Positions 9,671-35,097 of a DNA stretch of 63,111 bases are shown here, piece after piece; the stretch's first letter is position 1, and each line of letters begins with the position of its first letter. The notes under the pieces are model-generated. The model made no database searches. It was not told the DNA's origin and saw nothing but the letters and a program-made list of their open reading frames with translations. This DNA comes from a virus (Duplodnaviria > Caudoviricetes): positions 1 through 63,111 of IMG/VR virus record IMGVR_UViG_3300048898_000040; one strand, 5' to 3'. Both the position numbers and the translations under genes were made by a program.

Positions 9671-9878
9671 GAGCCAGCCTCCGGTTCCGCTCCCGAGCCT
9701 TGCGGAGCTTGCTGAGCACCACGTAGCGCTGGTGTGGCGTCAGGTGCGGCCAGACCTTGTCGCGGTAGGTGGCCGCCGCCTGAATGGCCAGCAGCATCTT
9801 GGCCGGGTCTGCCCCTGTCCGTACGGTCACGCGCGCCAGCTCGGAGATGGCGGCTTCGAGCTCCGGGCTTATGGGCAT
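9660..9878 (-). CDS. Small basic hypothetical protein
   Basis: 72 aa ORF overlapping both neighbours. Confidence 0.55.
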   Translation of the reverse strand: MPISPELEAAISELARVTVRTGADPAKMLLAIQAAATYRDKVWPHLTPHQRYVVLSKLRKARERNRRLARGL

Positions 9879-10783
9879 AGCAGCTCGCTCGCGGGGGCGT
9901 GTGTGTACACCTTCTCGTCGAGGTACGCGTTGTATTCTCCGGCCAGGAAGTTCTCGATGAACTCGTCCTCGCCTAGCTGCTCGGGCGTTTGGTAGCAGAG
10001 GCAGTTGGGGTGACTACGCGGTCGCTGACCGACGGGGTACACCCCGTGTCCCAGGCCGTGAATATCCTGCTGAGCATATGTGTTGCACTCGTCTGGCTTC
10101 GGATGGCTGCGAGAAAGGTTCCACCGCATGCCCGTTGTCCAAGGCTCGTCGGCATATCGCTCGGCCTGACTGGTCTGATAGGCATGGTTGATCTCCGTTC
10201 GGGCCAGTCGATGCGCGGCATAGCTGACCCCACCGGCCACGTCCGGCAGGATGAGGTCTTTGACAGACTTGGCGATGGCCTTGGCGTTGTTGCCCAGGAG
10301 GAGACCCCGCTTGACAGTACGGTCCACCAGCCCGGTGGCAAGCGCCTGGCTCTTGTACACCGCGCGACTGAGTGGGATGCCGTTCTTGCTCTTGGCCAGC
10401 ACCGCCACGATGCCCTGCTTGGCCTGCTGCCTCCAGGCGGCCAGGAACGGGGCCGGGTTAGCGCCAGCCTTCGTGAACGTCGACAGTAGAACATCCTGTG
10501 CCGCCTCTGCCGCCCGAAGGTAGCCCGTCTCCACCCCCGAGCGGGTTACGCGCCCCAGATCGCCCCACAGAGCCGATTGCGCCACCTTCAGCTCGCGCAG
10601 TACGAGGGCTAATTGCGCCGCCTTCACGGTGCCGCCAGTGGTGTGCTGTTCTATGAGCTTGGGGATGAGCCGTTCGGCCTCTTGAGCACCATCGGTCAAG
10701 ATGTCGTCTAGCTCCTTCTTGGTGATGCCATATTGCGCCAGCACGTCGAGTAGCGGCTGGTTGCGCGGAATAGGCTGGGCCAT
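9869..10783 (-). CDS. MuF-like minor head protein
   Basis: RLARTEINHAY, W...SH...DECN and HPNCLCY motifs; follows the portal. Confidence 0.8.
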   Translation of the reverse strand: MAQPIPRNQPLLDVLAQYGITKKELDDILTDGAQEAERLIPKLIEQHTTGGTVKAAQLALVLRELKVAQSALWGDLGRVTRSGVETGYLRAAEAAQDVLLSTFTKAGANPAPFLAAWRQQAKQGIVAVLAKSKNGIPLSRAVYKSQALATGLVDRTVKRGLLLGNNAKAIAKSVKDLILPDVAGGVSYAAHRLARTEINHAYQTSQAERYADEPWTTGMRWNLSRSHPKPDECNTYAQQDIHGLGHGVYPVGQRPRSHPNCLCYQTPEQLGEDEFIENFLAGEYNAYLDEKVYTHAPASELLCP

Positions 10784-20896: not shown

Positions 20897-22267
20897 TTAC
20901 CCATCCCTCCCCACCACCCTCGCCGCCGCAGGATCCGCCGCCCACTCCCGGGGGTCGATGGCCCCGACGAACAACGGCGTGTCGTTGGCATCCACGACCA
21001 CGCTCTTGGGGCCGACGCCGACCACCACCTCATGAGGCGGTACCACGTCGTACTCGCTGCCCCACTCGCTGCTGGGCCGACCGAGACGCTCGTTGGCGTC
21101 CACCCGCGCACGGATGGTGCAGCCCCGGTCGAACTTGGCCATGAACCCGCACTTGCCCTGCTGATAGCACACCGGCCGAACGAGGTCGGCGAACGCGGTG
21201 TACTGCCAGCCGTCACCATCGCGGTAGATGTACTCCATGCTGTCAGCTTCGGTGCGGTAGTACTCCTCGCTAAAACCAGCTGAGCCCCGCTCCCGCAGCG
21301 CCTTAGCCACGCCCGCGAACGCCTGACGCCAGTGGAACTGAGCCTGCGTGCAGGTACGCTTCCCAGCCTCCTGCAACAGCGTGCGCAGACTGACTGTCCA
21401 GTAGTACCGCGTCGTGATGGCATGCACCAGTACGTCGCGCGCTTCCTCGGCAGGCATGCCCGCCCCGATGAGCGCGTTGTAGTTGTCCTCGCTCTGGTTC
21501 ATGGCCTTGCGCCACACTCCCACCGCCGGGGCGTCCTGCGGGAGGGAAGCGAGGGAGGGCGGTAGCGGCACCTCCTGCGCCCAGTCCTCCGCCACCGCGA
21601 ACCGCAAGGACTCCTGCGCGAAGAAGCTGAAGCGGTTACGCACCGCCTGGTGCGTGAAGGCCCGCGACACTCCCTCGACCAGGAAGGTGAACTGGATGGC
21701 CTCGAGTGGCCCGTCGAGGGTCGTCGCCTGCATGTCCGCCAGCATCTGCCGCCGCTGCTCGTCGGTCACCTCGGACTTCGACCGGGCCACCTGCCCGGTG
21801 TAGATACCGCCGATGACGGCCAGCGTGCCCAGCGGATCAACCGGCGCATCGATGAGCGTGACGGTCGGTCCGAGCCGCGCCGCGTCCGGCATCGGCTGCC
21901 GCTCGTACTGCTGCGCATCGGCCTTGCGAACGAGCTGACCTTTCATCATGGCCTTGCGGGCGGCCTCGCGCCGGTCCAGCTCGGCCCAGACATGCAACAT
22001 CTGCGGGTACCCGCAGATCCGGGTTCCGCCGAGGTCGAGGCGATAGTCGCACAGCGTGGGCTCGCTCTTCTGCGGCACGAAGTCGTGCGGATGCGTGTTG
22101 ATGAGGTGCCGCTGCTCGGTCGACCCGGGGTTGGCGTGCGCCATGGCCTGCTGCCCGCAGATTTCCGCAACCTGAAGCGGGTGAGTACGGTCGTGAATGA
22201 ACTGGCACGAGGCCCCCGCCCGCAGCTCACCTTGGTACGGGTGGTCGGTAATGTATTCGTCTGTCAT
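20897..22267 (-). CDS. thyX: Flavin-dependent thymidylate synthase (ThyX-like), with a variant motif and an N-terminal His/Cys extension
   Basis: PLEAIQFTFLVEGVSRAFTHQAVRNRFSFFAQESLR (RxRx7S), GMPAEEARDVL. Confidence 0.85.
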   Translation of the reverse strand: MTDEYITDHPYQGELRAGASCQFIHDRTHPLQVAEICGQQAMAHANPGSTEQRHLINTHPHDFVPQKSEPTLCDYRLDLGGTRICGYPQMLHVWAELDRREAARKAMMKGQLVRKADAQQYERQPMPDAARLGPTVTLIDAPVDPLGTLAVIGGIYTGQVARSKSEVTDEQRRQMLADMQATTLDGPLEAIQFTFLVEGVSRAFTHQAVRNRFSFFAQESLRFAVAEDWAQEVPLPPSLASLPQDAPAVGVWRKAMNQSEDNYNALIGAGMPAEEARDVLVHAITTRYYWTVSLRTLLQEAGKRTCTQAQFHWRQAFAGVAKALRERGSAGFSEEYYRTEADSMEYIYRDGDGWQYTAFADLVRPVCYQQGKCGFMAKFDRGCTIRARVDANERLGRPSSEWGSEYDVVPPHEVVVGVGPKSVVVDANDTPLFVGAIDPREWAADPAAARVVGRDG

Positions 22268-22374
22268 GCCTGTCCCACAGTCTTCACTAGTACGTAGACG
22301 ACGATAGCGACAATGACGACCAGCAGAACGAACGCCGCCCCGTAGTCTCCGCCGCCGTTGTTGTTCTTACTCAC
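22264..22374 (-). CDS. Small single-pass membrane protein (36 aa)
   Basis: GTG right after the ACTACCCGGGAGGG motif; AAFVLLVVIVAIVVYVLV; stop overlaps the thyX ATG. Confidence 0.6.
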   Translation of the reverse strand: MSKNNNGGGDYGAAFVLLVVIVAIVVYVLVKTVGQA

Positions 22375-22414
22375 AATCCCTCCCGGGTAGTGCGCCCCTT
22401 TCCCGGGGCACTCG

Positions 22415-22605
22415 TGCTCGGCCGGGAATCGAACCCGGATTCAGGTGGCTAACCGAATGCCCTCGACTACCAGCCCTTCCTCAAAACCGGTAGCCGAGCC
22501 GAGCCACGGAGCCTTCACTCTCCGCGTGCAGTACGAGACGGGGGTCGTGACCCGTACCGCAACCATCGGGCGGCGCACCGCGAAGTAACCGCCCTGTAAG
22601 GTCTA
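22415..22605 (-). ncRNA. Structured RNA ending in a tRNA-like domain (22415-22504)
   Basis: Three hairpins, then GCTCGG/CCGAGC acceptor-like stem, a 12-bp arm, a 6-bp arm and T-arm CCGGG-TTCGATT-CCCGG. Confidence 0.65.
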
Positions 22606-22610
22606 ACGAA

Positions 22611-22639
22611 ACTATGTCAGGCCAGGGCCCGACAAGCAA
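22611..22639 (-). promoter_or_regulatory. Putative sigma70-type promoter for the structured RNA
   Basis: TTGCTT-17 nt-CATAGT. Confidence 0.4.
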
Positions 22640-22651
22640 GCCGCCACGCCT

Positions 22652-23353
22652 TCAGGACTCGTCCGCATCGAGGCGGAACATGCACCCGTTGACTTCCGGC
22701 CCCGATCCCAGGTTGTGCACGATAAGGCTGGCAAGCGAGCTCTTGGCCATGCCCCCGGCCAGTCGCTGGTCCCGCATCCGGGTGAGTCGCCCCGGCCCGA
22801 ACTGCGCCACAGTGTCGGCCGTCATGGGCGTGTCAGCCAGTAGCCCCGGCTCGTAGCCGTACACGAACAGGTTCGACCCCGCACCACTCAGCTCACGCGC
22901 CTTGACGCGTAGCGCCATGCTGAGCGCCGCTTTACTGGCGCAGTACGCCGCCGACCCAGAACGCGGCACGTGCGCGCTGTTGCTGCTGATGGCTACGTAG
23001 TGGTGCGGCACCCGTTCGGTGTCATTGTTGGCCAGCACCATGGTCCACGCCTGAAGCAGCTTCATCGGCATGACAACGTTGACACCGAAGTGCCAGCGGT
23101 ACCACTCCTGCAGGGCATCCGGGTCCAAGTCCTGCTCGGGGTTGTTGATGCCGACAGTGCACACCACGTGCGTCGGCTGCTCCTTCTCCAGGAAGGCCGC
23201 CAGGCTCAGCACGCTCGAACCTAGCGACAGCGTGCGCTCTTCTCCAGCTATTCCGGCAGTCACCACGTCGTACGCCGCGAGCGCCGCGTACATGGCAACT
23301 TCCTCGCCGAGCGAACCCTTACGGGCTCCGACGACCAGCACCTTCTTGGTCAC
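22652..23353 (-). CDS. Short-chain dehydrogenase/reductase (SDR)
   Basis: VLVVGARKGSLG Rossmann start, ISS, catalytic YCASK, PGLLADTPM. Confidence 0.85.
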   Translation of the reverse strand: MTKKVLVVGARKGSLGEEVAMYAALAAYDVVTAGIAGEERTLSLGSSVLSLAAFLEKEQPTHVVCTVGINNPEQDLDPDALQEWYRWHFGVNVVMPMKLLQAWTMVLANNDTERVPHHYVAISSNSAHVPRSGSAAYCASKAALSMALRVKARELSGAGSNLFVYGYEPGLLADTPMTADTVAQFGPGRLTRMRDQRLAGGMAKSSLASLIVHNLGSGPEVNGCMFRLDADES

Positions 23354-24009
23354 CCCTCCCCTCCGTCCCGCAGGTTCACGCGCGGCTTGACGTAGACCTG
23401 GCGCATGGCGTCGTTGTGGATCCAGTAGCTGAACGCGCCGTACGTCGACTGGCAGGTCTGCGCGTGAATGAACGCGTTGGCCTGCATGGCCTTGATGGTG
23501 TCCGAGTATGCCCGCTGCGTCGGCACCTTGAAGCTCAGGTGCGGGATAGGCAGCTCCGACCACTGGCCCCAGGTCGGCACCGCGCCCTCCGGGTACCAGA
23601 GCGCCTGATGCAGCGGGCTGAAGCCGTACCGCTTGTCCCGAGTGGCCTCGTCCATGCGCATTACCTCGAGCCGCCAGGTGCGGTGGGGGTGTCGGAGAAA
23701 GGTGTACGCCACGGCATACCGGGTGCCGAACGGGTTGGTGAACACGAGGTCAGTAGCCTCATTGAACAGCCGCCACCCGCCCACCATGAGTTCCCGGACC
23801 AGACCCTCCTTCGCACCGATGCCCGGAGCCAGGATGCTGGCCTCGTCGAAGTAGCACCCGGTCGGGAGCATGGGCGTGTACTTGTCGATGTACGTCTGAA
23901 CCATCTGCACATTGGCCGACACTGGGAGACGGCGGTCCCAGTAAAGCGGTTTCTGGCTCAGCGGCACCCGGAGAACTTCACCGTCGAGCTCAACTTCAGA
24001 AAGTCTCAT
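23350..24009 (-). CDS. Putative VOC/glyoxalase-fold protein
   Basis: LEVMR...SPLH...HLSFKV...FSYW pattern resembles methylmalonyl-CoA epimerase-type VOC proteins. Confidence 0.45.
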   Translation of the reverse strand: MRLSEVELDGEVLRVPLSQKPLYWDRRLPVSANVQMVQTYIDKYTPMLPTGCYFDEASILAPGIGAKEGLVRELMVGGWRLFNEATDLVFTNPFGTRYAVAYTFLRHPHRTWRLEVMRMDEATRDKRYGFSPLHQALWYPEGAVPTWGQWSELPIPHLSFKVPTQRAYSDTIKAMQANAFIHAQTCQSTYGAFSYWIHNDAMRQVYVKPRVNLRDGGEG

Positions 24010-27000
24010 TATCTCTCCATCGATAGGACATGGAGCTCGGTGGCGTACAGCGCCCGCCGGTACTCCGCTCGTTTGTAGCCCCGCACTAGCAAGAGGTCAT
24101 TATCCGGGTCCAGGTCCCAGATATCCTCCTTGTACTTCTCATACAGACCGCCATACCGGTGCACGGTAATTGTCAGCGGCCCAGTCTCGTCAACGCCCAG
24201 GATCACAGCGTAGTTGACGTACTGCGGCTCCTTCACCTTCTTGGGGTCCAGCTCCTCGCCGGTTCGGGAGCGGTGTAGTTCGTATATGTCCTTGAGGTTA
24301 CGGTGCACCACTCGGCCGAGCCAGACATGCTCGCCCCGAATGGCTTCGTATGGCACGGTCTCACTGCGCGAGGAGGGGAAGGGGAGGTTAGCGCGTTCAC
24401 CGTGCTTGTCCAGCCACCACCGCGCTCTGTCGAGCGTGCGCTTTAGCTCGTGAATACCGAACGGGTCGTCCTGTGCGCAGAACTCCTGCACCCTCTTCAT
24501 GGTGGCCGGGCCGATACCCCTGACCGCTACGTAGTCGGCCCACTCCATCTCCACCCGACGACCAACCGTGCGCCTCCACAGCGGCCGGTACTCAAGCATC
24601 AGCTCGGCCGTCTTCTCGCCAATCCCCTTCACCTGCACGAGGCCAGCCCGCAGCGCTTCACCTTCGATGGACCACGTGAGCTGAGACATCTCCGGATCTG
24701 GCGGGAGCACCCGGATGCCCTTGCTGGTAACCTCCTTCAGGATGTCGAGCACCTTGTCTTCGTCCTTGTACTTGCTCAGCGCCGCGCAGTAGAAGGCCAG
24801 CGGGTGATTCTGCTTTAGCCACATTGTCCAGTAGGCCAGCATCCCGTACGACACACAGTGCGCCGCGTTGAAGGCGTACGCGCCTGCTGTCACGAGCTGC
24901 TTCCAGATGCGCCCGGCCACCACCGGCCGTACCCCGAGCTCGCCCGACCCCTCCATGAACTTAGCCTGTAGCCGGTTGAAGGCCTGCTCGCCCTGTTTCT
25001 TGCTGATGAGCTTACGGACCAGGGCGGCCTCTTCCCACGAGAACCCGCCCAGCTCGCGGACGGTACGGAGGATCTGCTCCTGGTACACGATCTGGCCGTT
25101 GGTGTGCGCCGTGATTTCGGTCAGGACCGGGTGTAGCTTCTCCACCATCTTCTTGCCGTGCTTCGCCTGGATGTACTCAGCCGCCGCGCCACTGTGTAGC
25201 GGACCGGGACGGGCCAGCGCGTTGATGTCACAGACTTCAGCGAAAGTATCAGGTTTAACCTCTCGGTTAACCGACCGCATAGCACGACCGTCAAACTGAA
25301 AGATTCCGATGACCTCGTTGCGTTTGAAACCGTCGTAGACCTTTTGGTCATCCAAAGGAACAGCATAGAGCTCCTCCAGCGTCATACCTATGATGCCCAG
25401 CGCCCGGCGAATGAGGCCCATCGTGGTAAGGCCCAGTGCGTCAATCTTCAGCACGTTCAGGTACTCGGCGTCGTACTTGTCGATCGAGAGCACCTCTCCG
25501 ATGACTTCGCCCTTCGGCGTCGTGCGCTTGTACACCGCGAGGTTCTGGGTCAAGGGGCCGTTCGCCACCACAAGGCCCGCAGCGTGCACGCTGAAGCCTT
25601 TAATGTTGCCTTCGAGACGTTGGGCGGTCTCCAGGTCGGGCCACATGGCAAACACCTTGGCCACCTTGGGGAACAGCTCTCGGCTATCCTCGATGGTCTG
25701 GCCGTACCGTAGGTCACCTGACGACCTTTCAAGTAGCCCTCCCTTGACCTCCTCCACCGCAGTTTTGGGGATGTTGAACACCTTGGCCGCGTCGTCGAGG
25801 CTGTTCTTGCCCCGGTACATGGTGAAGGTGCCGATGTTGCCCACCCGTTCCGCGCCATACAGGTCGACCAGGTGGTCGCGCACCTTGTACCGCAGCTCGT
25901 CGTCGAAGTCCAGGTCCACGTCCGGCAGGTCGTGCCGGTTGACATCGATGAACCGCTCGAAGATGAGGTTGGGGAACAGCATCGGGTTGACCTCAGTGAT
26001 GCGCAGCAGCCAGCAGGCCAGTGACGCAGCCGCCGAGCCACGGGCGGGGCCGACCGGGATACCGTTCTGCTTGGACCACTTCACCATTTCCGAAATAACC
26101 AGGAAGTAGTCCGTGAACCCCTTCGACAGAATCAGCTCGGTCTCGTACTTCAGGCGGTCTAGATACCGTTTTCGCTCCGCTCCCACCAGGGCGTGAAGAC
26201 CCCGGTACCGCCATCCTTCTCGGAGCCACTGCATGAACAGCTCCCGCGACGGCTTAGTGCCTGGGAATACCAGGTCCTTAAGTTTCGGTAGCGTGACGTT
26301 GCATCTATCGGCAATCTCCAGACTTGTACCCACCGCCCGTTCAGCCGTACTGCTACGTAGCCCGGTCTCCAGGAGTCCGCTGTATACGGCATCACCCGTT
26401 TGGTGAGCCAGAACCAACCCGTATTCCCAGCTCTGCGCCTGGGCTTCAACCGTGTTGCGACTCCCTCCCCGGTCAATGGCGTGAAGGACGGGGTACATGT
26501 CCTGGTCGGCTTCCGTCGGGTAATGCACGTCACCAGTCGCGACGAGCGGTATGCTGAGCCTTCCCCCAATGCGACCCAAGGCTCGATTGTAAGCCTTCTG
26601 CTTTTCGAGCAGTGGGTGCGCCTGTACCTCCAGGTAGTAACGGTCCCCGAATACCTCTCGAAACTGGCTGGCAACACGAATGCCCGCTGCCAAGTCTGCC
26701 GACTTCTTATCGCCCTCACCCTTCCCTCCCATCACCGCAGTAGCGAGCCGTCCGCCCAGGCAGCCGCTCAGCACGACGAGCCCCTCGTTATGCTCGGCCA
26801 GCATCTCCCCGGTCGTGGTCGGCTTGTAGCGGAAGTTGTCCCAGCTCTTCGTCACGATCTGGTACAGGTTGTGCAGGCCCGTATCGTTCATCGCGAGCAC
26901 CGTCAAGTGGTGCTTGAGCTGGCCGCGCTCATCAGGCGTCTCGCAGTACAGCTCGCAGCCCTTGATGTCCTTCACGCCCACCTTCGCTGCCGCGCGCTCA

Positions 27001-27152
27001 GCGTTGGCGTGGCTGCTGACGTTGCCATGCTCAGTGAACGCCCGAGCCTCTATGCCCATCTCCGCGCACGCCTCTAGATGCTCCTCGGGCATCTTGAATC
27101 CATCCCCGGGGCTGAAGGTGGTGTGCCCGTGCAGCTCGGCGCGCTTACGCAC
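24009..27152 (-). CDS. dnaE: DNA polymerase III alpha subunit
   Basis: PHP domain LHGHTTFS, GPARGSAAAS, LPDVDLDFD, SVHAAG, LKIDALGL, YAFNAAH. Confidence 0.95.
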   Translation of the reverse strand: MRKRAELHGHTTFSPGDGFKMPEEHLEACAEMGIEARAFTEHGNVSSHANAERAAAKVGVKDIKGCELYCETPDERGQLKHHLTVLAMNDTGLHNLYQIVTKSWDNFRYKPTTTGEMLAEHNEGLVVLSGCLGGRLATAVMGGKGEGDKKSADLAAGIRVASQFREVFGDRYYLEVQAHPLLEKQKAYNRALGRIGGRLSIPLVATGDVHYPTEADQDMYPVLHAIDRGGSRNTVEAQAQSWEYGLVLAHQTGDAVYSGLLETGLRSSTAERAVGTSLEIADRCNVTLPKLKDLVFPGTKPSRELFMQWLREGWRYRGLHALVGAERKRYLDRLKYETELILSKGFTDYFLVISEMVKWSKQNGIPVGPARGSAAASLACWLLRITEVNPMLFPNLIFERFIDVNRHDLPDVDLDFDDELRYKVRDHLVDLYGAERVGNIGTFTMYRGKNSLDDAAKVFNIPKTAVEEVKGGLLERSSGDLRYGQTIEDSRELFPKVAKVFAMWPDLETAQRLEGNIKGFSVHAAGLVVANGPLTQNLAVYKRTTPKGEVIGEVLSIDKYDAEYLNVLKIDALGLTTMGLIRRALGIIGMTLEELYAVPLDDQKVYDGFKRNEVIGIFQFDGRAMRSVNREVKPDTFAEVCDINALARPGPLHSGAAAEYIQAKHGKKMVEKLHPVLTEITAHTNGQIVYQEQILRTVRELGGFSWEEAALVRKLISKKQGEQAFNRLQAKFMEGSGELGVRPVVAGRIWKQLVTAGAYAFNAAHCVSYGMLAYWTMWLKQNHPLAFYCAALSKYKDEDKVLDILKEVTSKGIRVLPPDPEMSQLTWSIEGEALRAGLVQVKGIGEKTAELMLEYRPLWRRTVGRRVEMEWADYVAVRGIGPATMKRVQEFCAQDDPFGIHELKRTLDRARWWLDKHGERANLPFPSSRSETVPYEAIRGEHVWLGRVVHRNLKDIYELHRSRTGEELDPKKVKEPQYVNYAVILGVDETGPLTITVHRYGGLYEKYKEDIWDLDPDNDLLLVRGYKRAEYRRALYATELHVLSMER

Positions 27153-27170
27153 CGCGACTACTCAGCTTGC

Positions 27171-27311
27171 TCATCGGCAGACCGCCGTCCAGAAGTCCGG
27201 AAAGTGCTCCGCCCCACCCGGGAGGATAATGGCGCACACCAACGTCACCCCGAACAGAAAGCACAGGAGCCCAAAGAGAAAGGATTGCCAGAGAGAAACT
27301 CGCTTAGCCAC
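27171..27311 (-). CDS. Small membrane protein
   Basis: MAKRVSLWQSFLFGLLCFLFGVTLVCAIIL... Confidence 0.5.
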   Translation of the reverse strand: MAKRVSLWQSFLFGLLCFLFGVTLVCAIILPGGAEHFPDFWTAVCR

Positions 27312-27816
27312 GAGCGGGCTCCGCTCTGGTCTGGCCCTGGTAGTGAGACCCGAGTCCAGCCGAACCGTACGGGCGACCGACTGCCACGTCCGTAGCGTGG
27401 AAGGTGATCTGGCAGATGGCCATACCTGCGGAGAGGTAGATGGGGGAGTGACTCATGTTCTTCAGTTCCAGCGTGATGGTGCCGTCGAACCCGGGGTCCA
27501 CCAACCCGGCCGCCTCCACCATCAGCCCACGCCGCGCCCAGGTGCTCTTGCCGTGCACCAGCCCCGCGATGTGGTGAATGAGCGTGATGCGTTCCATCGT
27601 GCAGGCGAGCATGAACTCGCCCGGGCGAATGACCGTGTGGCTTTCGATGTATCGGGAAGGGGTATCCATCCCGCCGTCGGCCGTTTCCCGGGCCCAGGAG
27701 TTGCCGAGCCGTAGGTCGACACTGATGGGCTGGAATTGTTGCTCTTCTGGCCTGGGTACGATCTTGACATCCCCGGAAAAGAGCAGGGCGTTGATGGTCC
27801 TATCGGACAGCAGCAT
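27304..27816 (-). CDS. dcd: dCTP deaminase (trimeric dUTPase superfamily)
   Basis: MLLSDR, QPISVDLRL, GKSTWARRGL, AGLVDPGFDGTITLEL, YQGQ. Confidence 0.9.
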   Translation of the reverse strand: MLLSDRTINALLFSGDVKIVPRPEEQQFQPISVDLRLGNSWARETADGGMDTPSRYIESHTVIRPGEFMLACTMERITLIHHIAGLVHGKSTWARRGLMVEAAGLVDPGFDGTITLELKNMSHSPIYLSAGMAICQITFHATDVAVGRPYGSAGLGSHYQGQTRAEPARG

Positions 27817-28381
27817 TCGGGACCTCCAGAACGGCCTTGAACTGTTCGAACATGAGCGGTCGGTTGGACCGCTGGTAGATACCGTATGCCGGGTGCCGCA
27901 GGTACAGCACGGGCGCGAACGACCCGCCGACATACGACCACTCGCCGAGGGCCGTTGCCCCGACAGCGTTCGCAGCGTGTCGCCCGAGAGCCACGAGGGG
28001 CGGGTAATCCAGGAGCGCGTGCTCGCGCCACAGGTAAGCCCTCCCGGCCTCCACCTCCGCAGGTTCGGGGTCCCGGTTGTTGCGGGGCCGGTACTTGACC
28101 ACGTTGGTGATGAACACCTCCGAGCGTTCGATACCCACCGACTCCAACATTTCGTTCAGCAGCTCGCCACTAGCTCCGACGAAAGGCTTACGGGCTAGAT
28201 GCTCCTTAGCCCCCGGAGCCTCGCCGACGAACAGTAGGCGCGGGTTCGTAGGCCCATCGCCGGGCACCAGCGCACCACCGGCTTCGGCCCGAACGCGCCG
28301 TAACGCGGGATCTACGGCGTACCTGGCATACAGCCGCCGCAACAGCACCCGACGGCCAGCCTCGCTAGAACCCGGGGGCAT
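27800..28381 (-). CDS. Uracil-DNA glycosylase, family-4-like
   Basis: FVGEAPGAKE, PFVGASG, ITNVVKYRP, NRDP and HPAY motifs. Confidence 0.85.
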   Translation of the reverse strand: MPPGSSEAGRRVLLRRLYARYAVDPALRRVRAEAGGALVPGDGPTNPRLLFVGEAPGAKEHLARKPFVGASGELLNEMLESVGIERSEVFITNVVKYRPRNNRDPEPAEVEAGRAYLWREHALLDYPPLVALGRHAANAVGATALGEWSYVGGSFAPVLYLRHPAYGIYQRSNRPLMFEQFKAVLEVPNAAVR

Positions 28382-28721
28382 CGACAACCGCCTTGTAGCC
28401 CGAACCGCTACTGATGAGCGGGTACACCTTGTCTTGCCCATCCCCGCTCCTCACCCGCAGGACCATGGCCGTCTCGGGCTTGCCGATACAGTCGATGAGC
28501 ATCCCGAGGCCGTACTTGCCGACGAGGTGCAAGGCCTGTTCGTGCGACACCTGCATCTCACCAAATAGTTCGGTTAGACTGGCCCGGACGGTGAGTTCAA
28601 CGAACGGCTCCGGCCGTGGTACCCCGTCGCAGTACACCTCGTTGGCCATTACCAGATGCTTCGGATGCTCGTCCGCAGCACCGCAGTACTCGTTCCGCAG
28701 GCCGTTGTCGATACTGGTCAC
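28365..28721 (-). CDS. Hypothetical protein
   Basis: 118 aa with CGAADEHPKH...CDG. Confidence 0.55.
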   Translation of the reverse strand: MTSIDNGLRNEYCGAADEHPKHLVMANEVYCDGVPRPEPFVELTVRASLTELFGEMQVSHEQALHLVGKYGLGMLIDCIGKPETAMVLRVRSGDGQDKVYPLISSGSGYKAVVDAPGF

Positions 28722-28869
28722 TTTTTCCTCACCAGCGCCTTCAGCAGCCGAGAAAGCTTACCCTCCGGCTTCGGCCCGTTGCCCCAGTGGTACGGCCCGT
28801 TCGTGGCCCCCGGCTGCACTCGGTACCCTGGCCGAATGGCCTTGGAGGCGTCGTACTTCGGCTCTTTGC

Positions 28870-29349
28870 TCACTTGCCCCACCGGTTCCCTTCCTCGATG
28901 TTGGCAATGGCCAGTGCGCACAGCGCGGACAGGTCGTACAGCGTGTCCAGCACCGACTCGTCTTGCCCCTCCGGAACCACGGACTCTACCTCGTCCCGCC
29001 ACAGCATGTTCTTGAGGCGGCTGGTCTTGCTCAGGATCCGGGCCAGGTTACCCATGTAGCCCTGCTTCTGCCAGGCGTTGCCGTACGCGACGTCCTTCTT
29101 CTTGAGCAGTGCCAGCACTGCATCGCTGTGCCCCTGCCACACCGCCATAGACGACCCCGGCCAGAACTGCCCGCGAACCGTAAAGTGCTCCGGGAAGGTT
29201 TGGATTTTCTCGAGCACGCTCGGCGGCCTGACCACGACGTGGATGGGGTCGGCGACCTGCTTCTTGCACTGGCGCGCGCCGTCCTCGGAGCCCGCGACAT
29301 ACAGACACTCGAACCCTGGACCGGAGCCCTTGAACGCGTGCGGCTTCAC
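28870..29349 (-). CDS. Nucleotide-modification-associated domain 1 (Nmad1/DUF1599)-like protein
   Basis: LLKKKDVAYGNAW...ARILSKTSRLKN...DESVLDTLYDL. Confidence 0.7.
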   Translation of the reverse strand: MKPHAFKGSGPGFECLYVAGSEDGARQCKKQVADPIHVVVRPPSVLEKIQTFPEHFTVRGQFWPGSSMAVWQGHSDAVLALLKKKDVAYGNAWQKQGYMGNLARILSKTSRLKNMLWRDEVESVVPEGQDESVLDTLYDLSALCALAIANIEEGNRWGK

Positions 29350-29722
29350 AGCATCACCACCCAGTACGCGCACTTAGCGGCGACAGCCACGAGGGAGAGA
29401 CCGCAGCCCCACATCGTGACATCGATGGCAGTGTGCTGCACGGCCTTGTGGAACTCGGCGTCCCGCCAGCGGGCCCTCAGGCGGCCCCAGCGCGTACCCG
29501 CTTCGGTCTCCAGCTCCATCGTCGACCCCTCCTGGCTCTCAGCCCCGACCACGGCCCCGTTACGCCGCCGGTTGCGCGGGTGCAGCTTGGCCATCCAGCC
29601 GTGCGTACGACGCTGACGCGGACCGAAGACCGCCCGACCCCGTTCGTCGCGGGTCACGTACCTGGTCTCCCCTTCGAGGTCCTCGATGTAGTAGCCGTTG
29701 CGGTCGAACATTTCATCTATAG

Positions 29723-30367
29723 TCATTGCTCTGCCTTCCATTTATCGAGCTGCTCCCGCAGCCAGTCAAGTGTCTCTTCATGGGTACGCAGCGCTGGCCA
29801 CGGACCAAACTGACCCCCGACCGATATCGCCTTGTACTGCCGCTCGTTGTGGTATCGCTGGGCAAACCCCACGGGCAGCCCTAAAGCCTCTGCTCTCCGA
29901 CACTGCTCTGGTAGGTCATCGAGTACGGCCGCCACCCTATCGCCACCCACCGTGCGCACCAGTTCACGGTACTTGTGTTCACCCCAAATGATGCCCTGAT
30001 ACAAGGCTCCATTGCGGCGCAGATTGTGTCTGGTATGGTCATCCACCTCGTCATGGCTGAGGTAGGGCCGAGTGGTGCAGAACCAGATGTCGACACCCCA
30101 CCGACGCACCGTGTGCGTAAGGTCCATCACCTGCGGAAAGGGGAGGGGGAGGGGCGGCAGCGAACGCTTCATCGCGCCGCGCCGGTAGGCCAGCTTGCAC
30201 GCGCGATAGCTCTGCTTGCTCACGCCCAGGTACTTGGCCAGCGAGATGCGCGCGTCATACCCGTGCTCGTCGATGGGCTTCCCGAAGTACTGCGTGGCGA
30301 ACCGCAGGAAGTGCGGGTAGTAGTCGAGTAGCGTCCCGTCTAGGTCCAACCCGACAACCGGCTTCAT
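29723..30367 (-). CDS. HAD-superfamily (5'-deoxy)nucleotidase-like phosphatase
   Basis: GLDLDGTL motif I, CTTR motif II, K, LDD motif IV. Confidence 0.8.
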   Translation of the reverse strand: MKPVVGLDLDGTLLDYYPHFLRFATQYFGKPIDEHGYDARISLAKYLGVSKQSYRACKLAYRRGAMKRSLPPLPLPFPQVMDLTHTVRRWGVDIWFCTTRPYLSHDEVDDHTRHNLRRNGALYQGIIWGEHKYRELVRTVGGDRVAAVLDDLPEQCRRAEALGLPVGFAQRYHNERQYKAISVGGQFGPWPALRTHEETLDWLREQLDKWKAEQ

Positions 30368-30542
30368 GCCTTCTCCTCCGGAGCTAACAAGTCGCCGTCC
30401 TTCTCGCTGCCTACTTCCCACTCTACGGCCTTCCAGCCCCGACCGAGCATTGCCACCCGGCGTTCCGCTAGCTTCTCGGTCTCCCACAACGAGTCGACCT
30501 CGTTCGGGTCGTAGTTGCTGTACACCACTACCCACACCGTCT

Positions 30543-31421
30543 TCATACCTCACCCCTCGCCATTGCCGCGTACAGGCCCGTCGGGGTCCGCCACGGTCCC
30601 GGGAACCTCTCCATGAGCTTGCGCCCCATCACCTCGGCAAACAGGCTGTCGCCCCTGTGCAGGTTCACCGGCTTTTCGCGTACCCAGATTCCTTGCGTGC
30701 CTTCGGTGCGCAGCTCGGGGAAGGCCTGCCACGCTGGCTCCTTCAGGCGCGGTTCGTTAACCTCGCGCCAGTGCGTACCGCTGAATGCCGCAGCGATGCG
30801 CTCATCGCGGTACGGCATGATGGCCCGCACGCTAGCCTCGGCGCAGATGGCTTGCACCGCACCGCAGTTACCACGGTCCTCGTCCCAGTAGATGCGGCGC
30901 AGGGCATCTATGCGCGTGCTGTTTCCATCCTCGCGTACATGCTGGCGCTCGGGGCCGGGGATGCCCTGTGCTCGGTCGTAGTTTCGGCTGATCCAGTTCC
31001 CGTTTATGTAGTACCCATCAGCCTGGTCGCCGGTGTACAACACGCTGACCCCCGCCGCAGCAGCCACCTCGGCAATGAGCACCATGGGCGCGAGGGACTC
31101 GACTTGCATCTTGGTCCGGTAGCCGTGCCCTATCACTGTACGTGCCAGCGCTTCCAGGTCGGCAGGCTTGGTGCTCACTTCGGCGCTATAGAACGATAGA
31201 TCTAGGAGAGCGGCATTGGTCCGGGCGTAGGCGTGGTCAGTCGACTCGTGGGTGTCCGGCGTGTAGCTGATGATTACGGGACGCATACCCCGACGCAAGC
31301 ACGCGGCCAGCACCGAACACGAGTCAATACCCCCACTGAGCGCGATGCCCACCCGGCCCGTACGTCTGACATTCGCCTCCAGCCTGCGACGGAGGAGGGC
31401 CGGGAGGGTTAGCCCGGTCAC
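30543..31421 (-). CDS. Asparagine-synthetase-like PP-loop ATP pyrophosphatase (no glutaminase domain)
   Basis: GIALSGGIDS, LYTGDQADG, MPYRD, K...REK motifs. Confidence 0.8.
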   Translation of the reverse strand: MTGLTLPALLRRRLEANVRRTGRVGIALSGGIDSCSVLAACLRRGMRPVIISYTPDTHESTDHAYARTNAALLDLSFYSAEVSTKPADLEALARTVIGHGYRTKMQVESLAPMVLIAEVAAAAGVSVLYTGDQADGYYINGNWISRNYDRAQGIPGPERQHVREDGNSTRIDALRRIYWDEDRGNCGAVQAICAEASVRAIMPYRDERIAAAFSGTHWREVNEPRLKEPAWQAFPELRTEGTQGIWVREKPVNLHRGDSLFAEVMGRKLMERFPGPWRTPTGLYAAMARGEV

Positions 31422-32248
31422 AGCATCCCCCGCGTCTCGTAATAGGCCTCATGCACGAGAACGCCCTTGCGCCACTTTCCGTAGCGGCCAAGGCGGTGCC
31501 AGGTACGCCCGACGTTGCAGTCGCAGTCAGTGCTCAGCGGCTTCTGTACGCGCGCGATGCCGGAGATGGGTGGCTTGGGCCCGTCAGGCCATTCGAGCGT
31601 GCTGTGGCCGAACACAGTGGCCGCGCGGTACCAGCGTGGGCTCTCGTGCGCATTGCACTCCACCGTCATGTCTGGCGCGTAGTACGGCATGGAACGCTGC
31701 GTAGCAAAGTCCTCTCGGGGACCGCCCATCGCCCACACGTCCTGTGTCACGAACTTGTGGTCCTCCTGCTTGCGGCACAACGACTTCGCCGGGATGGTGC
31801 ACAGCACCTTGGGTAGCAGGTACGAGAACTCGAGAGCCTTCATGGGGGTGATGACGGCAGGCTCAATGCGCGGGAACCACCGCTCCCACAGCACGTCGTA
31901 CACCTTACGCAGATCCCAGGCCAGATGGTTGGCTTCCGCGCCGTACTCGTCGGGGCTGACAGCCCCGTCCCACGCTGCACCGTACACCTTGCGCCGGTAA
32001 TCCTCGGGGTAGCCGTTCAGGAAGTACCGCACGCTCTTACCCGCGACCACACCGGTATCTATTCCCGGGATAGAGGCGTGCAGATACTGACACCCGTGAA
32101 GCTCGCTCTTGGCTGGGTTGCCGTCGGGCCCGGGAGAGCTGTATACAGTGACCTCCCTCCCCCTCTCCTCCGCAGCATGCGCAGCCAGTAGACCGGCCGG
32201 GCCAGCCCCGAGCACCACCACCGGCTTCTTCCTCTTGAACGCAGCCAC
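31418..32248 (-). CDS. FAD/NAD(P)-dependent oxidoreductase
   Basis: VVVLGAGPAGLLAA dinucleotide-binding motif, CTIP, C-terminal LGRYGKW. Confidence 0.8.
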   Translation of the reverse strand: MAAFKRKKPVVVLGAGPAGLLAAHAAEERGREVTVYSSPGPDGNPAKSELHGCQYLHASIPGIDTGVVAGKSVRYFLNGYPEDYRRKVYGAAWDGAVSPDEYGAEANHLAWDLRKVYDVLWERWFPRIEPAVITPMKALEFSYLLPKVLCTIPAKSLCRKQEDHKFVTQDVWAMGGPREDFATQRSMPYYAPDMTVECNAHESPRWYRAATVFGHSTLEWPDGPKPPISGIARVQKPLSTDCDCNVGRTWHRLGRYGKWRKGVLVHEAYYETRGML

Positions 32249-35097
32249 TATTCCTCCAGGTCTCTTACAATGCGGATAAGGTCCGGGGTCATGCTGATGT
32301 ACCCCTTACTGCGACGGCGGACCATACCCATGCGCAGCAAGGCTGCCACGGCCTGCGTAGCCTCCTCGGGCGTGACACCACCGAACTCCGTGAAGTCGCG
32401 GCCCCGAAACTGCGTGTCGTTGATGGTGGTCTTGAGCGTTTCGAGGATAGGCTCGTTGCCCGCCAAGAACAACCGACACTGCTGGTCGTAGTCTCGAGCG
32501 TTCTGACGCGCCCGTATTTCTTTTCTGCTGTGGTCAGCGTACCCGAACCATCGCTTGCCATACAGCATGTCGAGCAGCTCCACTGCTGCGTCAACGTGCT
32601 CCTCTTTTACGAGGACTTCTTCCCCGGTACCACTGTGACTAAAGAGCCGGGCAGCAACGGCCACCGAGAGCCGGGCAAGCTTGACCCGTACGTTCTCAGG
32701 CTGCACCAACGGAGGGTCAGCAATATAGCGGCCCCCGAGTTCTTCGGCGCAGGCCAGTACGTGACGCTCCACGCCCTTGCTCCAGTGAACCTGATCAGGA
32801 CGACGGGACCATGCCCAGGTAACAAGAGCACTTGCGAGGTCGCGAGTGGCCCGATGTGGTGCCCGTGGAGGGGCCGCACTGTTGATGATCGCACTATTCA
32901 CATCCTCCTGCGCCGCCACCATCGCGAAGTCGAACCGGGCGATGTCCTCTGGGTTCTTGATGAGCATCTGGATAGCGTCAATAGCGCCATTGTTTGTGGC
33001 TTGGATGGGTCGACCATCAACCGGATTACTAATCCAGATGGTACGGGTCCTCGCAAAAGTCTCCTGACTAACAATCTTGCTGACCTGCGCTCGGCCACTG
33101 CTGCGCACCGCTGACATCTGCTCGATGATGTTCTTGTCATTCATACCACTGACTTCATCGAGGATTACCAGCCTTCTATCCTGAAGGGGGATTGTGCCCC
33201 AGGTGATGACCCAGCTGTTGCCGATTTGCTGGGCACCCCCGACCAGACCAGCCAGGGTAGCCCCCTCGCAGCTCTTGAGTACCCCACATTGATAGTGATG
33301 CCGGAGCCGTTCTGCCGCCTCACTCTTACCCGTTCTGGTGTCACCCATGACGAGAAGCTCGAGCCAACCTTTGCCGAGACGGTTACCCCGGAAAGAGTAG
33401 TCAAGGACCGAGTGCCAGACCAGGTCGTACGCAATGTGCAGTTCCGGTCGTCCGTAGATGTGCGTGACATTGGCAGCCAGGTCCCGAGCCAGCTCTTGCA
33501 GCTTATCCATTGGGGACTGTGATGGTCCCGGCTGGAAGACAGCCTCCAGAAGTCCACGTAGGTCTCCCGTCATCTCGAATCTATCGAGGCTGGTCTTGGT
33601 CTCCTCGAAGCCCCAAGCCTGGAACACCACCTGCCCGCTCTTGGGGTTCGGCGTGCTGATACCCGTCAGGCGTGCCGTAGTGTTGACGGCCGTCAGCTTG
33701 CCAGCCTCGGTGACGTTGAACACCCGACGGAGGACCTGGTCGCCATCGCTGTCCTCGGGGTCGTCGATATTAGGAACCACCGCCAACTCGTCGACGCGCC
33801 ACTGGCTTTCCAGATGCACCTCGACACGCGGACAGGTACCCGGTACCTCCAGGCTCCGCAGCAGCTCCCCGCGTCGCTTGTCGTCTGGCAGGTCCATCAT
33901 CTGCAACAGCACACGGTCGTCGGCTGGAACCTCGCCCTTATGCTCGCCGCCCCATCGGTCGTTCATCGGGCACACTGTGCACTTGGTCTTCTGCCAATCC
34001 TGACCGCAGTTGAGGGCGTAACTGCGCGGGAGGGCCGTCGGGGTGGCGCTACGGCCAGAGATGGTCGCCACCATTGAGACGGGCTGATCTACCAGCGAAG
34101 GGTCGAAGCTATCCCGCATCCGTACCTCGGGTACCTCCGCCACCGCGCGACCCCGGCTAACCCGCCGGTCGCGGTACGGCGGCGTGGCCTTGCATAGGTC
34201 GATGAAGTTCTGCTTGCCGTAGCCCTGGTTCACGTAGTAATCGGTCTGGTCGCTGCCCGCCACCGTTAACGGGAGCTTCACCACGTGCACGGACTCCGCG
34301 ACATTGCGGAGTTGATTGGCCACTTTCCGCGCGCCCTGTTCGCCGCCCTGGTCCACGTCATAGGTGATGTAGACAATCTTGCCAACGAAGTGCACGTTCC
34401 ACTCGGCCAGCCAGGTTCCGGCCCCTGCGGTGGAAGAGAGGGAGGGGAAGCCGTATTGCCGCTGCAACAGGGCATCCATCTCCCCCTCATGCAGGAAGAC
34501 GCGCTTCATCTTCAACGCGTCCATGCCCCAAAGAGCTGCATCCCCGTACCCCGGCCAGTTCATCATCTTGTTGACTTTGGCACCCATCTTGTACCGGCGC
34601 ACATTGATGAGCTGTCCGAGCGGGTCACGAACTGGGATGATGAACCTCTCCCCGTCGTACCCGATTTTATAAGTGGCGAGCGTGGACTTGCGCAGACCAC
34701 GCTTCGTGAGCATCTCCTTGAGGAGCAGATGGTTGCCCAGTAAGGCATCCCGCCACTCCTCGATGGTTGCCTCCGACGGAAGCTGTACCGCCTCGGCTAC
34801 CCCTTCAGCCTTGCGCTTGCGCCGCCGCCTTTCGGCCAGTTCGTCGCGCTTGCGCTCGACACGAGGCTCTGGCACCTGTCCGCTCTTCATCGCTGCCACC
34901 AGCCCCTGCATGCTGTACCCGCCGCATCGGCTGAAGCAGTAGAACTTGCCCGCACCGAAGTTGAAGCTGGCGCTGGGCGTGCGACTGGTCTCGGGGTCCT
35001 CGTGTAGCGGGCAGTACGACCGTGTCTCTCCCTGCTCATCCTCCTGGCCCGTGAGCCACGGCGCGAACTTGTCGCGCCACCCTGCACCACGCGCCAT
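32248..35097 (-). CDS. Primase-helicase fusion (zinc finger + TOPRIM + MCM-like AAA+)
   Basis: CPLHED...CFSRC; EGEMDAL, YDVD; MGDTRTGKS, TLAGLVGG, ILDEV, ARFD. Confidence 0.85.
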   Translation of the reverse strand: MARGAGWRDKFAPWLTGQEDEQGETRSYCPLHEDPETSRTPSASFNFGAGKFYCFSRCGGYSMQGLVAAMKSGQVPEPRVERKRDELAERRRRKRKAEGVAEAVQLPSEATIEEWRDALLGNHLLLKEMLTKRGLRKSTLATYKIGYDGERFIIPVRDPLGQLINVRRYKMGAKVNKMMNWPGYGDAALWGMDALKMKRVFLHEGEMDALLQRQYGFPSLSSTAGAGTWLAEWNVHFVGKIVYITYDVDQGGEQGARKVANQLRNVAESVHVVKLPLTVAGSDQTDYYVNQGYGKQNFIDLCKATPPYRDRRVSRGRAVAEVPEVRMRDSFDPSLVDQPVSMVATISGRSATPTALPRSYALNCGQDWQKTKCTVCPMNDRWGGEHKGEVPADDRVLLQMMDLPDDKRRGELLRSLEVPGTCPRVEVHLESQWRVDELAVVPNIDDPEDSDGDQVLRRVFNVTEAGKLTAVNTTARLTGISTPNPKSGQVVFQAWGFEETKTSLDRFEMTGDLRGLLEAVFQPGPSQSPMDKLQELARDLAANVTHIYGRPELHIAYDLVWHSVLDYSFRGNRLGKGWLELLVMGDTRTGKSEAAERLRHHYQCGVLKSCEGATLAGLVGGAQQIGNSWVITWGTIPLQDRRLVILDEVSGMNDKNIIEQMSAVRSSGRAQVSKIVSQETFARTRTIWISNPVDGRPIQATNNGAIDAIQMLIKNPEDIARFDFAMVAAQEDVNSAIINSAAPPRAPHRATRDLASALVTWAWSRRPDQVHWSKGVERHVLACAEELGGRYIADPPLVQPENVRVKLARLSVAVAARLFSHSGTGEEVLVKEEHVDAAVELLDMLYGKRWFGYADHSRKEIRARQNARDYDQQCRLFLAGNEPILETLKTTINDTQFRGRDFTEFGGVTPEEATQAVAALLRMGMVRRRSKGYISMTPDLIRIVRDLEE

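Follow-up and report, generated by a model that had tools for sequence, protein, structure and literature searches.

Background

Base modifications shape the fate of phages against restriction and CRISPR, and supply enzymes of DNA chemistry. To our knowledge, the routes of pyrimidine hypermodification known so far all start from ThyA-type enzymes or from C5-methylase homologues. Among the enzymes described, gp47 of phage PaMx11 is a flavin adenine dinucleotide (FAD) oxidase of the GR2 fold that acts on a base flipped out of the DNA (PMC8989533, PMC11472151), and in the Cmo system, CmoX carboxymethylates C5 of cytosine in DNA and CmoY ligates glycine to the carboxyl with ATP (PMC12783734). Here, a block of genes at positions 20,897 to 32,248 of the virus record IMGVR_UViG_3300048898_000040 was analysed (63,111 bases; the entire record is called the window hereafter), for which a preliminary description made from the letters of the DNA had proposed a new pathway of nucleotide or DNA base modification wrapped around the polymerase DnaE. 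The block encodes a relative of CmoY in the company of a FAD-dependent enzyme, a phosphatase, and an altered ThyX, and is read here, tentatively, as a lineage-variable pathway of pyrimidine tailoring.

Conserved core and variable enzymes

All ten genes named in the preliminary description were recovered in their places on the minus strand (as are all features of the block given below), and each name was backed by the tools applied. Related loci share a fixed core, with variable enzymes around it, that consists of the FAD-dependent enzyme (31418..32248), a HAD phosphatase (29723..30367), the DnaE-type replicative polymerase (24009..27152), and a ThyX-like flavin-dependent pyrimidine C5 one-carbon transferase (20897..22267). 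For a survey of IMG/VR, the best 80 of 124 relatives of the FAD enzyme were taken, and the 42 loci with at least 9.5 kb of sequence downstream were scored. The phosphatase gene lay beside the FAD enzyme gene in 42/42 of these loci and DnaE accompanied it in 42/42, while the ThyX-like gene was present in 34 (some copies may fall beyond the flank) and a short-chain dehydrogenase/reductase (SDR) in 30. The genes for a VOC-fold protein and for an Nmad1-like protein were each found in 13 loci, always together and never alone.

The same core is common to more than 100 isolated phages of Mycobacterium, Gordonia, Microbacterium, Streptomyces, Arthrobacter, and Nocardia. The FAD enzyme has 623 homologues and matches in 126 actinophage records of the isolate collection, where the HAD gene was found in 83 records. 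Numbers of records with the FAD enzyme and with the ThyX-like gene were 46 and 46 for Gordonia, 36 and 36 for Microbacterium, and 32 and 28 for Mycobacterium phages, each gene being counted separately; the oxidoreductase and ThyX-like genes are direct neighbours in two of the Microbacterium phages listed. Phages Onyinye, P3.1, and Xenia2 have the order oxidoreductase, phosphatase, (FabG-like protein), DnaE, and ThyX-like protein. The module of Gordonia phage Xenia2 (L201 13622-16439, 20720-21376) additionally holds a class I S-adenosylmethionine (SAM) methyltransferase (Methyltransf_11, 4.7e-6), a MazG/PRA-PH-like pyrophosphohydrolase beside DnaE, and several open reading frames (ORFs) without a family match. 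Relatives thus swap tailoring genes such as the SAM methyltransferase and MazG in the same slot, which resembles biosynthetic clusters and counts for the tailoring reading.

All 13 genes of the block are kept in unchanged order in one IMG/VR relative at 27-79% amino-acid identity, and the gene order is therefore real and under selection. The shared orientation of the ten genes is uninformative, since nearly the whole genome lies on the minus strand.

The PP-loop ligase and its relation to the Cmo system

The gene at 30543..31421 encodes a stand-alone asparagine-synthetase-like PP-loop ATP-dependent ligase of 292 amino acids (PF00733 at 3.3e-12; motif SGGIDS), which is placed by its sequence as a distant CmoY homologue, probably in a sister clade of the CmoY DNA-base amide ligases. 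Its relatives in the phage collection are distant (24-29% identity) and come from Erwinia phages, Pseudomonas phage PaBG, Synechococcus phages, and a few others. The alignment of the window ligase with CmoY of phage S-B43 runs from end to end, spanning residues 21-270 with 25% of positions identical (E 1e-15). The S-B43 relative sits between a methyltransferase-domain gene and a DNA-cytosine methyltransferase gene, and these three genes are the CmoA, CmoY, and CmoX described in PMC12783734. The same CmoA/CmoY/CmoX trio is carried by PaBG, and pEa_SNUABM_5 has an adjoining methyltransferase.

A library-wide HMMER search yielded 223 representative clusters of ligase homologues, nearly all of them stand-alone proteins of about 270-290 amino acids. 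Ten longer homologues were scanned; four were fused to a C5 DNA methylase domain and one to a SET domain, and two matched a uracil-DNA glycosylase (UDG)-superfamily domain weakly, below the Pfam cut-off. These fused relatives are P0249, P0284, P0342, P0280, P0254, P0307, and P0337, and the weak UDG fusions echo the UDG gene that lies near the window ligase. Eighty viral loci with a ligase relative were divided into four of the actinophage type and 76 others. A CmoX-like gene occurred within 8 kb in 74 of the 76 other loci and a CmoA-like gene in 69; the two loci lacking CmoX were a contig end and a fragment of 2 kb. A quick tree of 81 rows grouped the seven ligases from FAD-enzyme contexts in one clade (SH-aLRT 98), beside and not within the 72 rows from Cmo contexts (90), the branches of the outgroup being very long.

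Five complete relatives lack the ligase. In a comparison of 83 window ORFs with two complete genomes that have the ligase and three that do not, the ligase was the sole gene with that pattern of presence and absence, and no partner gene co-varying with it was found among these five. Either the shared core or the host must therefore supply any substrate of the ligase. A sequence search of the ligase against the PDB found nothing, and its ESM Atlas entry begins only at residue 46. A reading as 7-deazaguanine chemistry was considered and dropped, no QueC match being listed for the ligase; no search was aimed at the TGT/DpdA family.

The ThyX-like enzyme

The ThyX-like protein matches PF02511 at 6.9e-29 and 101.4 bits, well beyond the Pfam gathering score (24.8), and stays below the NCBIfam equivalog cut-off of TIGR02170 (77.8 against 87.9 bits). 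Its Thy1 core spans residues 161-325 and is flanked by an N-terminal extension (1-107) and a C-terminal extension (330-456). The signature RHR-x7-S-x-R-Y is altered to R210-N-R212...S220-L-R222-F223. Across distinct members from the surveyed loci, R..R...S.RF is invariant in 35/35 sequences, and the position of the His in RHR is taken mostly by Gln (27) or Asn (5), the two commonest residues, and His is not among the residues listed there. Judged from these features, the enzyme belongs to a distinct subfamily and may yet still be a thymidylate synthase. The N-terminal extension is rich in Cys and His and confined to the closest relatives (404-510 amino acids), whereas the C-terminal one, with a CxxxxxC...C cluster, is more widespread; the shortest members of the family have about 295 amino acids. 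Neither extension received a domain assignment.

FAD enzyme, phosphatase, and DnaE

The FAD-dependent enzyme comprises 276 amino acids with N-terminal FAD/NAD Rossmann motifs (phrog_8720, 1.3e-68), and its AlphaFold2 (AF2) model (predicted local distance difference test, pLDDT, 92) is a compact two-domain FAD fold of the GR2 type. The best match found with VIA was UDP-galactopyranose mutase (4dsg_A, Z 14.3, 254 residues aligned), class A flavin monooxygenases followed slightly below (Z 12-13), and Foldseek was concordant. A sequence search of the PDB matched the Rossmann start alone. PaMx11 gp47 (NGTO), which may nevertheless be kin, was not among the matches listed by Foldseek or VIA. Five cysteines (C53, C158, C198, C242, and C244) are invariant across 43 aligned sequences and might build a metal site or a redox disulfide, an unusual feature for this fold class. 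The public gene call has 210 amino acids, i.e., 76% of the 276-residue ORF, and homologues of 264-295 amino acids span all 276 residues including the dinucleotide-binding start GAGPAG, so that the deposited start is probably too late.

The phosphatase is probably of the NT5C (5'(3')-deoxyribonucleotidase) type and carries the motif DLDGT (phrog_415, 1.8e-18). Its ORF is open up to 30553; homologues begin at MKPVVGLDLDGT, so the start was placed at 30367. PF06941 (NT5C) was matched at E <= 1 by 11 of 15 family members (best 1.5e-7), the window protein itself not being one of them, and a PDB search with the family profile found nothing.

DnaE has PHP, core, finger, and HhH domains and is 44-47% identical to DnaE of Streptomyces, Arthrobacter, Mycobacterium cluster D, Microbacterium, and Nocardia phages. 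The gene is intact in the window, while it is interrupted in several relatives (L003 12574-15949; L001 14266-17814; Wollypog). In L003 tblastn recovered it in two parts about 230 bases from each other, in Onyinye a small ORF separates two DnaE ORFs, and in Arthrobacter phage Wollypog an HNH endonuclease lies between the parts.

Accessory genes of the block

The VOC-fold protein (219 amino acids, 23350..24009; glyoxalase/methylmalonyl-CoA epimerase-like), which had been named as a candidate in the preliminary description, is borne out by its AF2 model (pLDDT 95) and by fold matches with both Foldseek and VIA. The model contains the paired beta-alpha-beta-beta-beta modules of the VOC superfamily, and its best VIA match was the methylmalonyl-CoA epimerase-like 3gm5 (Z 11.7, root-mean-square deviation 3.0, 135 residues aligned), followed by glyoxalase I 3hdp (Z 11.1); the fold match by Foldseek had an E of 6e-6. 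The invariant residues include E56, E115, H134, and H157, with strand placement taken from the DSSP string only; the last strand bears K208 and R210 and no Glu. All 86 homologues come from metagenomes, and tblastn gave no match to the gene in the phage collection. The ESM Atlas model of this protein was poor and offered no usable lead.

The divergent SDR (22652..23353) was recognised by adh_short (1.5e-9), the YxxxK motif, and phrog_3142 ('FabG-like'); its GTG start at 23353 overlaps the stop codon of the VOC gene as GTGA, and no PDB sequence matched at E <= 1e-5. For the helical Nmad1 (DUF1599)-like protein (167 amino acids, 28870..29373; phrog_1485, 1.6e-8), the label is backed via its family. 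PF07659, the 'Nucleotide modification associated domain 1', matched 7 of 14 family members at E <= 1 (best 1.3e-5), and the window copy itself matched weakly at 13.6 bits against a cut-off of 25. A PDB search with the Nmad1 profile found nothing.

The UDG (27800..28441), putatively of the family 4 type, matches PF03167 at 5.4e-30 (104.8 bits, cut-off 24.3) and reaches 120.8 bits with TIGR00758, just under the cut-off of 125.3. It holds a single cysteine, C6, so that what we take to be the Fe-S ligands of family 4 enzymes are absent. The dCTP deaminase (27304..27816) passes the equivalog cut-off of TIGR02274 (141.9 against 92.8 bits), and its start codon, the ATG at 27816, falls within the last bases of the UDG gene.

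Three further ORFs lie within the block. An ORF of 131 amino acids (29346..29741) had no Pfam or PHROG match and weak relatives in 3/42 loci, one of 118 amino acids (28365..28721) had no family match and relatives in 2/42 loci, and for the ORF at 30364-30546, between the ligase and HAD genes, no relatives were found, the small ORFs at the same position in Onyinye and P3.1 being unrelated.

Proposed pathway

A lineage-variable pyrimidine tailoring pathway is our leading reading of the block, and it is held tentatively. It is favoured because a member of an amide-ligase family occurs in the absence of its usual partners, together with Nmad1, an NT5C-type phosphatase, and a changed ThyX, and because the FAD enzyme accompanies core genes in every locus while accessory enzymes turn over between lineages. 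The module would be layered into the conserved core, add-ons for the supply of deoxyuridine monophosphate (dUMP) and the exclusion of uracil (dCTP deaminase and UDG), and lineage-variable tailoring enzymes (SDR, a VOC protein coupled to the SDR, Nmad1, and ligase). We infer the chemistry as follows, from each step and the substrate to the presence of the product in DNA. The core would act on a pyrimidine deoxynucleotide; the dCTP deaminase would yield dUTP or dUMP, the ThyX-like enzyme would add a one-carbon unit at C5, and the phosphatase would strip the unwanted deoxynucleoside monophosphate (dNMP). The FAD enzyme, the SDR, and the VOC protein might then oxidise or rearrange the C5 substituent, and in few genomes the ligase might adenylate the resulting carboxyl and form an amide, the outcome being a CmoX-independent route to an amide-type base.

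The most specific version of this reading states that actinophages of a widespread group make a C5-oxidised or carboxylated pyrimidine deoxynucleotide via the ThyX-type transferase, the FAD enzyme, the SDR, and the VOC protein, that some of them amidate it with the CmoY-like ligase, and that this is the first modification pathway founded on ThyX and not on ThyA; taken as a whole, it is unlikely. If true, pyrimidine hypermodification would have a third starting point, based on ThyX and equipped with a separate clade of amide ligases, and an amide-type hypermodification of DNA bases would need neither Cx-SAM nor a C5-methylase homologue. The core of FAD enzyme, dNMP phosphatase, and ThyX-like gene is present in more than 100 isolates that grow on laboratory hosts, and the literature searched holds no functional description of it. 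Even if there is no modification, this very common actinophage 'oxidoreductase/phosphatase' pair still needs a function.

Palindrome avoidance and points against the pathway

Expected numbers of palindromes were calculated with a maximal-order Markov model for the window and five related complete genomes (G001, G002, G006, G007, and G008). In the window, observed and expected counts were 0/43 for GCCGGC, 0/34 for GGCGCC, 1/34 for CCGCGG, 11/37 for CAGCTG, 6/24 for CTGCAG, and 158/253 for GATC; T-containing sites are thus depleted too, less completely. Ligase-positive and ligase-negative genomes did not differ in their palindrome avoidance. Other purged sites (e.g., GGCGCC, GAGCTC, and GGGCCC) vary by genome, and this variation suggests different host restriction systems. 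As the uracil-DNA reading does not fit a phage that encodes both UDG and ThyX, it was rejected.

Several results weigh against the tailoring pathway. All six genomes hold 0-1 copies of GCCGGC where 38-58 would be expected, and the five complete relatives show similar losses at other palindromes, CCGCGG, CAGCTG, and CTGCAG being depleted in them as well. Such purging is typical of phages with restriction-sensitive DNA and so argues, indirectly, against DNA that is shielded throughout. Neither a blocking base in place of every C or G nor a CmoX-like mark in GC contexts fits this pattern, and a modification, if any, is probably partial or not restriction-blocking. The ten genes do not travel together as one set. 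The co-occurrence expected from the preliminary description stood for the FAD enzyme, HAD, and DnaE core, and failed for the PP-loop ligase (3/42 loci), the dCTP deaminase (8/42), and UDG (12/42), as well as for the VOC and Nmad1 genes at the frequencies given above.

CmoX (PF00145) and CmoA (TIGR00740) had no match in the window at E <= 10 and none at E <= 1 in five ligase-bearing relatives, of which two are complete genomes. A methyltransferase was not found either when another ten window proteins from the early region were scanned with Pfam; the earlier statement that no DNA methyltransferase was recognisable agrees with the window scans. No glycosyltransferase turned up in the general scans of 41 window proteins, among which no family-level search was aimed at such enzymes. 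Likewise, the window proteins scanned included no recognisable dNMP kinase or DNA transferase, and Pfam and PHROG scans of the 41 proteins gave no 5-HMUDK-type kinase or aGPT-Pplase-type transferase, with no family search aimed at these. The modelled fold of the FAD enzyme does not fix any one chemistry. In the literature searched there was no report of modified DNA in these phage clusters, on the function of the module only genome announcements were found, and on Nmad1 nothing of use came up.

The ThyX-like protein also keeps the dUMP-site residues of Thermotoga maritima ThyX (R210, R212, S220, R222, R277, and R304); R277 and R304 align to R147 and R174, which we take to be the arginines that bind the phosphate and base of dUMP (numbering matched to a 12-residue tag offset of the chain). 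In PolB, the equivalent variant Y99F keeps 80% of dUMP methylation and 15% of UMP methylation (PMC5003785). Because these residues are kept and the change from Tyr to Phe is compatible with dUMP methylation, the ThyX-like enzyme may simply make deoxythymidine monophosphate (dTMP). With the CmoY-homologous ligase, Nmad1, the NT5C-type phosphatase, and the altered ThyX on one side, and patchy co-inheritance, the lack of CmoA and CmoX, and palindrome avoidance on the other, the first proposal is partly borne out, and a new base or nucleotide modification by this block is no more than plausible.

Alternative explanations

The block might instead provide an ordinary supply of dTMP and uracil hygiene beside the replisome, with the remaining genes as unrelated accessories (cofactor or redox helpers of ThyX, or 'morons') and no modified base at all, an explanation that we regard as somewhat less likely than the leading one. 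An SDR beside ThyX might, on this account, be a pteridine or folate reductase in the manner of FolM/PTR1. A dCTP deaminase above its equivalog cut-off, the retained catalytic arginines and serine of ThyX, the patchy distribution of accessory genes, the strong avoidance of restriction-type palindromes, and the silence of the searched literature on modified DNA in these clusters all speak for ordinary supply. Yet dTMP synthesis requires neither the FAD enzyme nor the dNMP phosphatase, which accompany DnaE in 42/42 loci and the ThyX-like gene in 34/42; the ligase family is elsewhere tied to C5-carboxymethylation of DNA (74/76 loci), and this ThyX subfamily lacks the His of RHR (Gln in 27 and Asn in 5 of 35) and falls below the NCBIfam equivalog cut-off. 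What the analysis shows is which genes and folds are present, how the genes co-occur, that the ligase is homologous to CmoY, and that CmoA and CmoX are missing.

Two narrower explanations differ in where the chemistry would take place. It is quite unlikely that the module makes a free modified nucleoside or nucleotide outside DNA, e.g., a metabolite for host takeover or anti-defence that the NT5C-type phosphatase releases last as the nucleoside. The genes lie inside the replication module around DnaE, Nmad1 takes its name from nucleotide-modification neighbourhoods, the window scans showed neither an exporter nor other small-molecule genes, and the relatives of the ligase act on DNA (PMC12783734). 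In favour of a free product, the phosphatase always adjoins the FAD enzyme, palindrome avoidance fits unmodified DNA, and actinobacterial nucleoside-antibiotic pathways proceed from the ThyX homologue PolB to 5-hydroxymethyl and 5-carboxyl UMP (PMC5003785). Another possibility, which we consider very improbable, is that the ligase acts exactly as CmoY does, on 5-carboxymethylcytosine in DNA, and that either the host or a phage enzyme that escaped recognition provides the carboxymethylation. The end-to-end homology to CmoY of S-B43 and the near-universal link of the family to CmoX point that way, but CmoA and CmoX are absent from three complete ligase-bearing genomes, the actinophage ligases form a clade of their own outside the 72 CmoX-linked rows of the quick tree, and no other gene matches the presence and absence of the ligase. 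Moreover, genomes that carry the ligase have likewise been purged of the C-only sites GCCGGC and CCGCGG; such purging would not be expected if the phage modified C in GC contexts in the manner of S-B43.

Genome and setting of the block

The window is the whole virus record, with direct terminal repeats at its ends, a GC content of about 63%, and almost all genes on the minus strand. From these features it is taken to be the complete genome, of about 63 kb, of an uncultured actinophage, the latter because of the identity of its DnaE to that of actinophages. No near-identical DNA was found in the phage collection. PHROG scans showed a conventional tailed-phage plan, in which both terminase subunits (small and large), the portal and major head proteins, a scaffold, and a MuF-like head protein are encoded at 2-16 kb. 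The segment at 32-43 kb carries genes for a helicase, a Sak4-like ATPase, a Cas4-type exonuclease, and the primase/MCM helicase, and the block at 20.9-32.2 kb follows directly; it is the DNA-replication and pyrimidine-nucleotide region of the genome. The primase/MCM-type helicase (32248..35097; Toprim_2 and MCM P-loop domains, DnaG domain 6e-10) lies immediately upstream of the block and adjoins the FAD enzyme in a close clade of IMG/VR loci.

In the head region, residues 668-793 of a 799-amino-acid protein (7271-9670, minus strand) match the PHROG family 'ADP-ribosyltransferase exoenzyme toxin' (9.6e-20). Its gene adjoins that of the MuF-like head-morphogenesis protein (9869-10783, minus strand) and is present in two of five complete relatives. 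From the sequences, this pair resembles an effector that is packaged in the head and either fused or linked to MuF.

Comparison with known systems

One close described counterpart is the CmoA/CmoX/CmoY system of S-B43. Both carry a stand-alone asparagine-synthetase-like PP-loop ligase of about 270-290 amino acids with the motif SGGxDS and no glutaminase domain, and CmoY is optional in S-B43-type systems as well, with 2251 ligases on contigs with 5615 CmoX genes (PMC12783734). Unlike S-B43, the window and two complete relatives possess neither CmoA (the Cx-SAM synthase) nor CmoX (the C5-methylase homologue), and the window ligase lies between the FAD enzyme and the dNMP phosphatase and belongs to a separate clade in the quick tree.

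Actinophage isolates (PBI1 and Gumball of cluster D, Onyinye, Xenia2 of Gordonia cluster DV, Microbacterium phages, and Nocardia phage P3.1) share the order of the module and its place downstream of the helicase, Cas4, and ATPase genes. They differ from the window in that its ligase and VOC genes match no actinophage record in the phage collection, that the Nmad1-like gene is absent from the two isolate regions checked (the whole collection was not searched for it), that identities to the window are only 36-49%, and that Xenia2 has the SAM methyltransferase and MazG instead.

Thymidine hypermodification in M6, ViI, and PaMx11 likewise combines an enzyme of the thymidylate-synthase type with tailoring enzymes (PMC8989533, PMC11472151), and the FAD enzyme of the window falls in the same broad fold class as PaMx11 gp47. 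In contrast to the window, these pathways start from a dUMP hydroxymethylase of the ThyA family and need a 5-HMUDK kinase and aGPT-Pplase transferases (PMC8989533, PMC11472151). PolB of polyoxin biosynthesis, a C5-methylase of UMP and dUMP, is an actinobacterial ThyX homologue in which altered loops change substrate use (PMC5003785). PolB differs from the phage enzyme in being encoded on a chromosome, within a pathway for an antibiotic, and in retaining the motif's His (His83, listed in that paper as essential), where the window protein has an Asn and, in addition, long terminal extensions.

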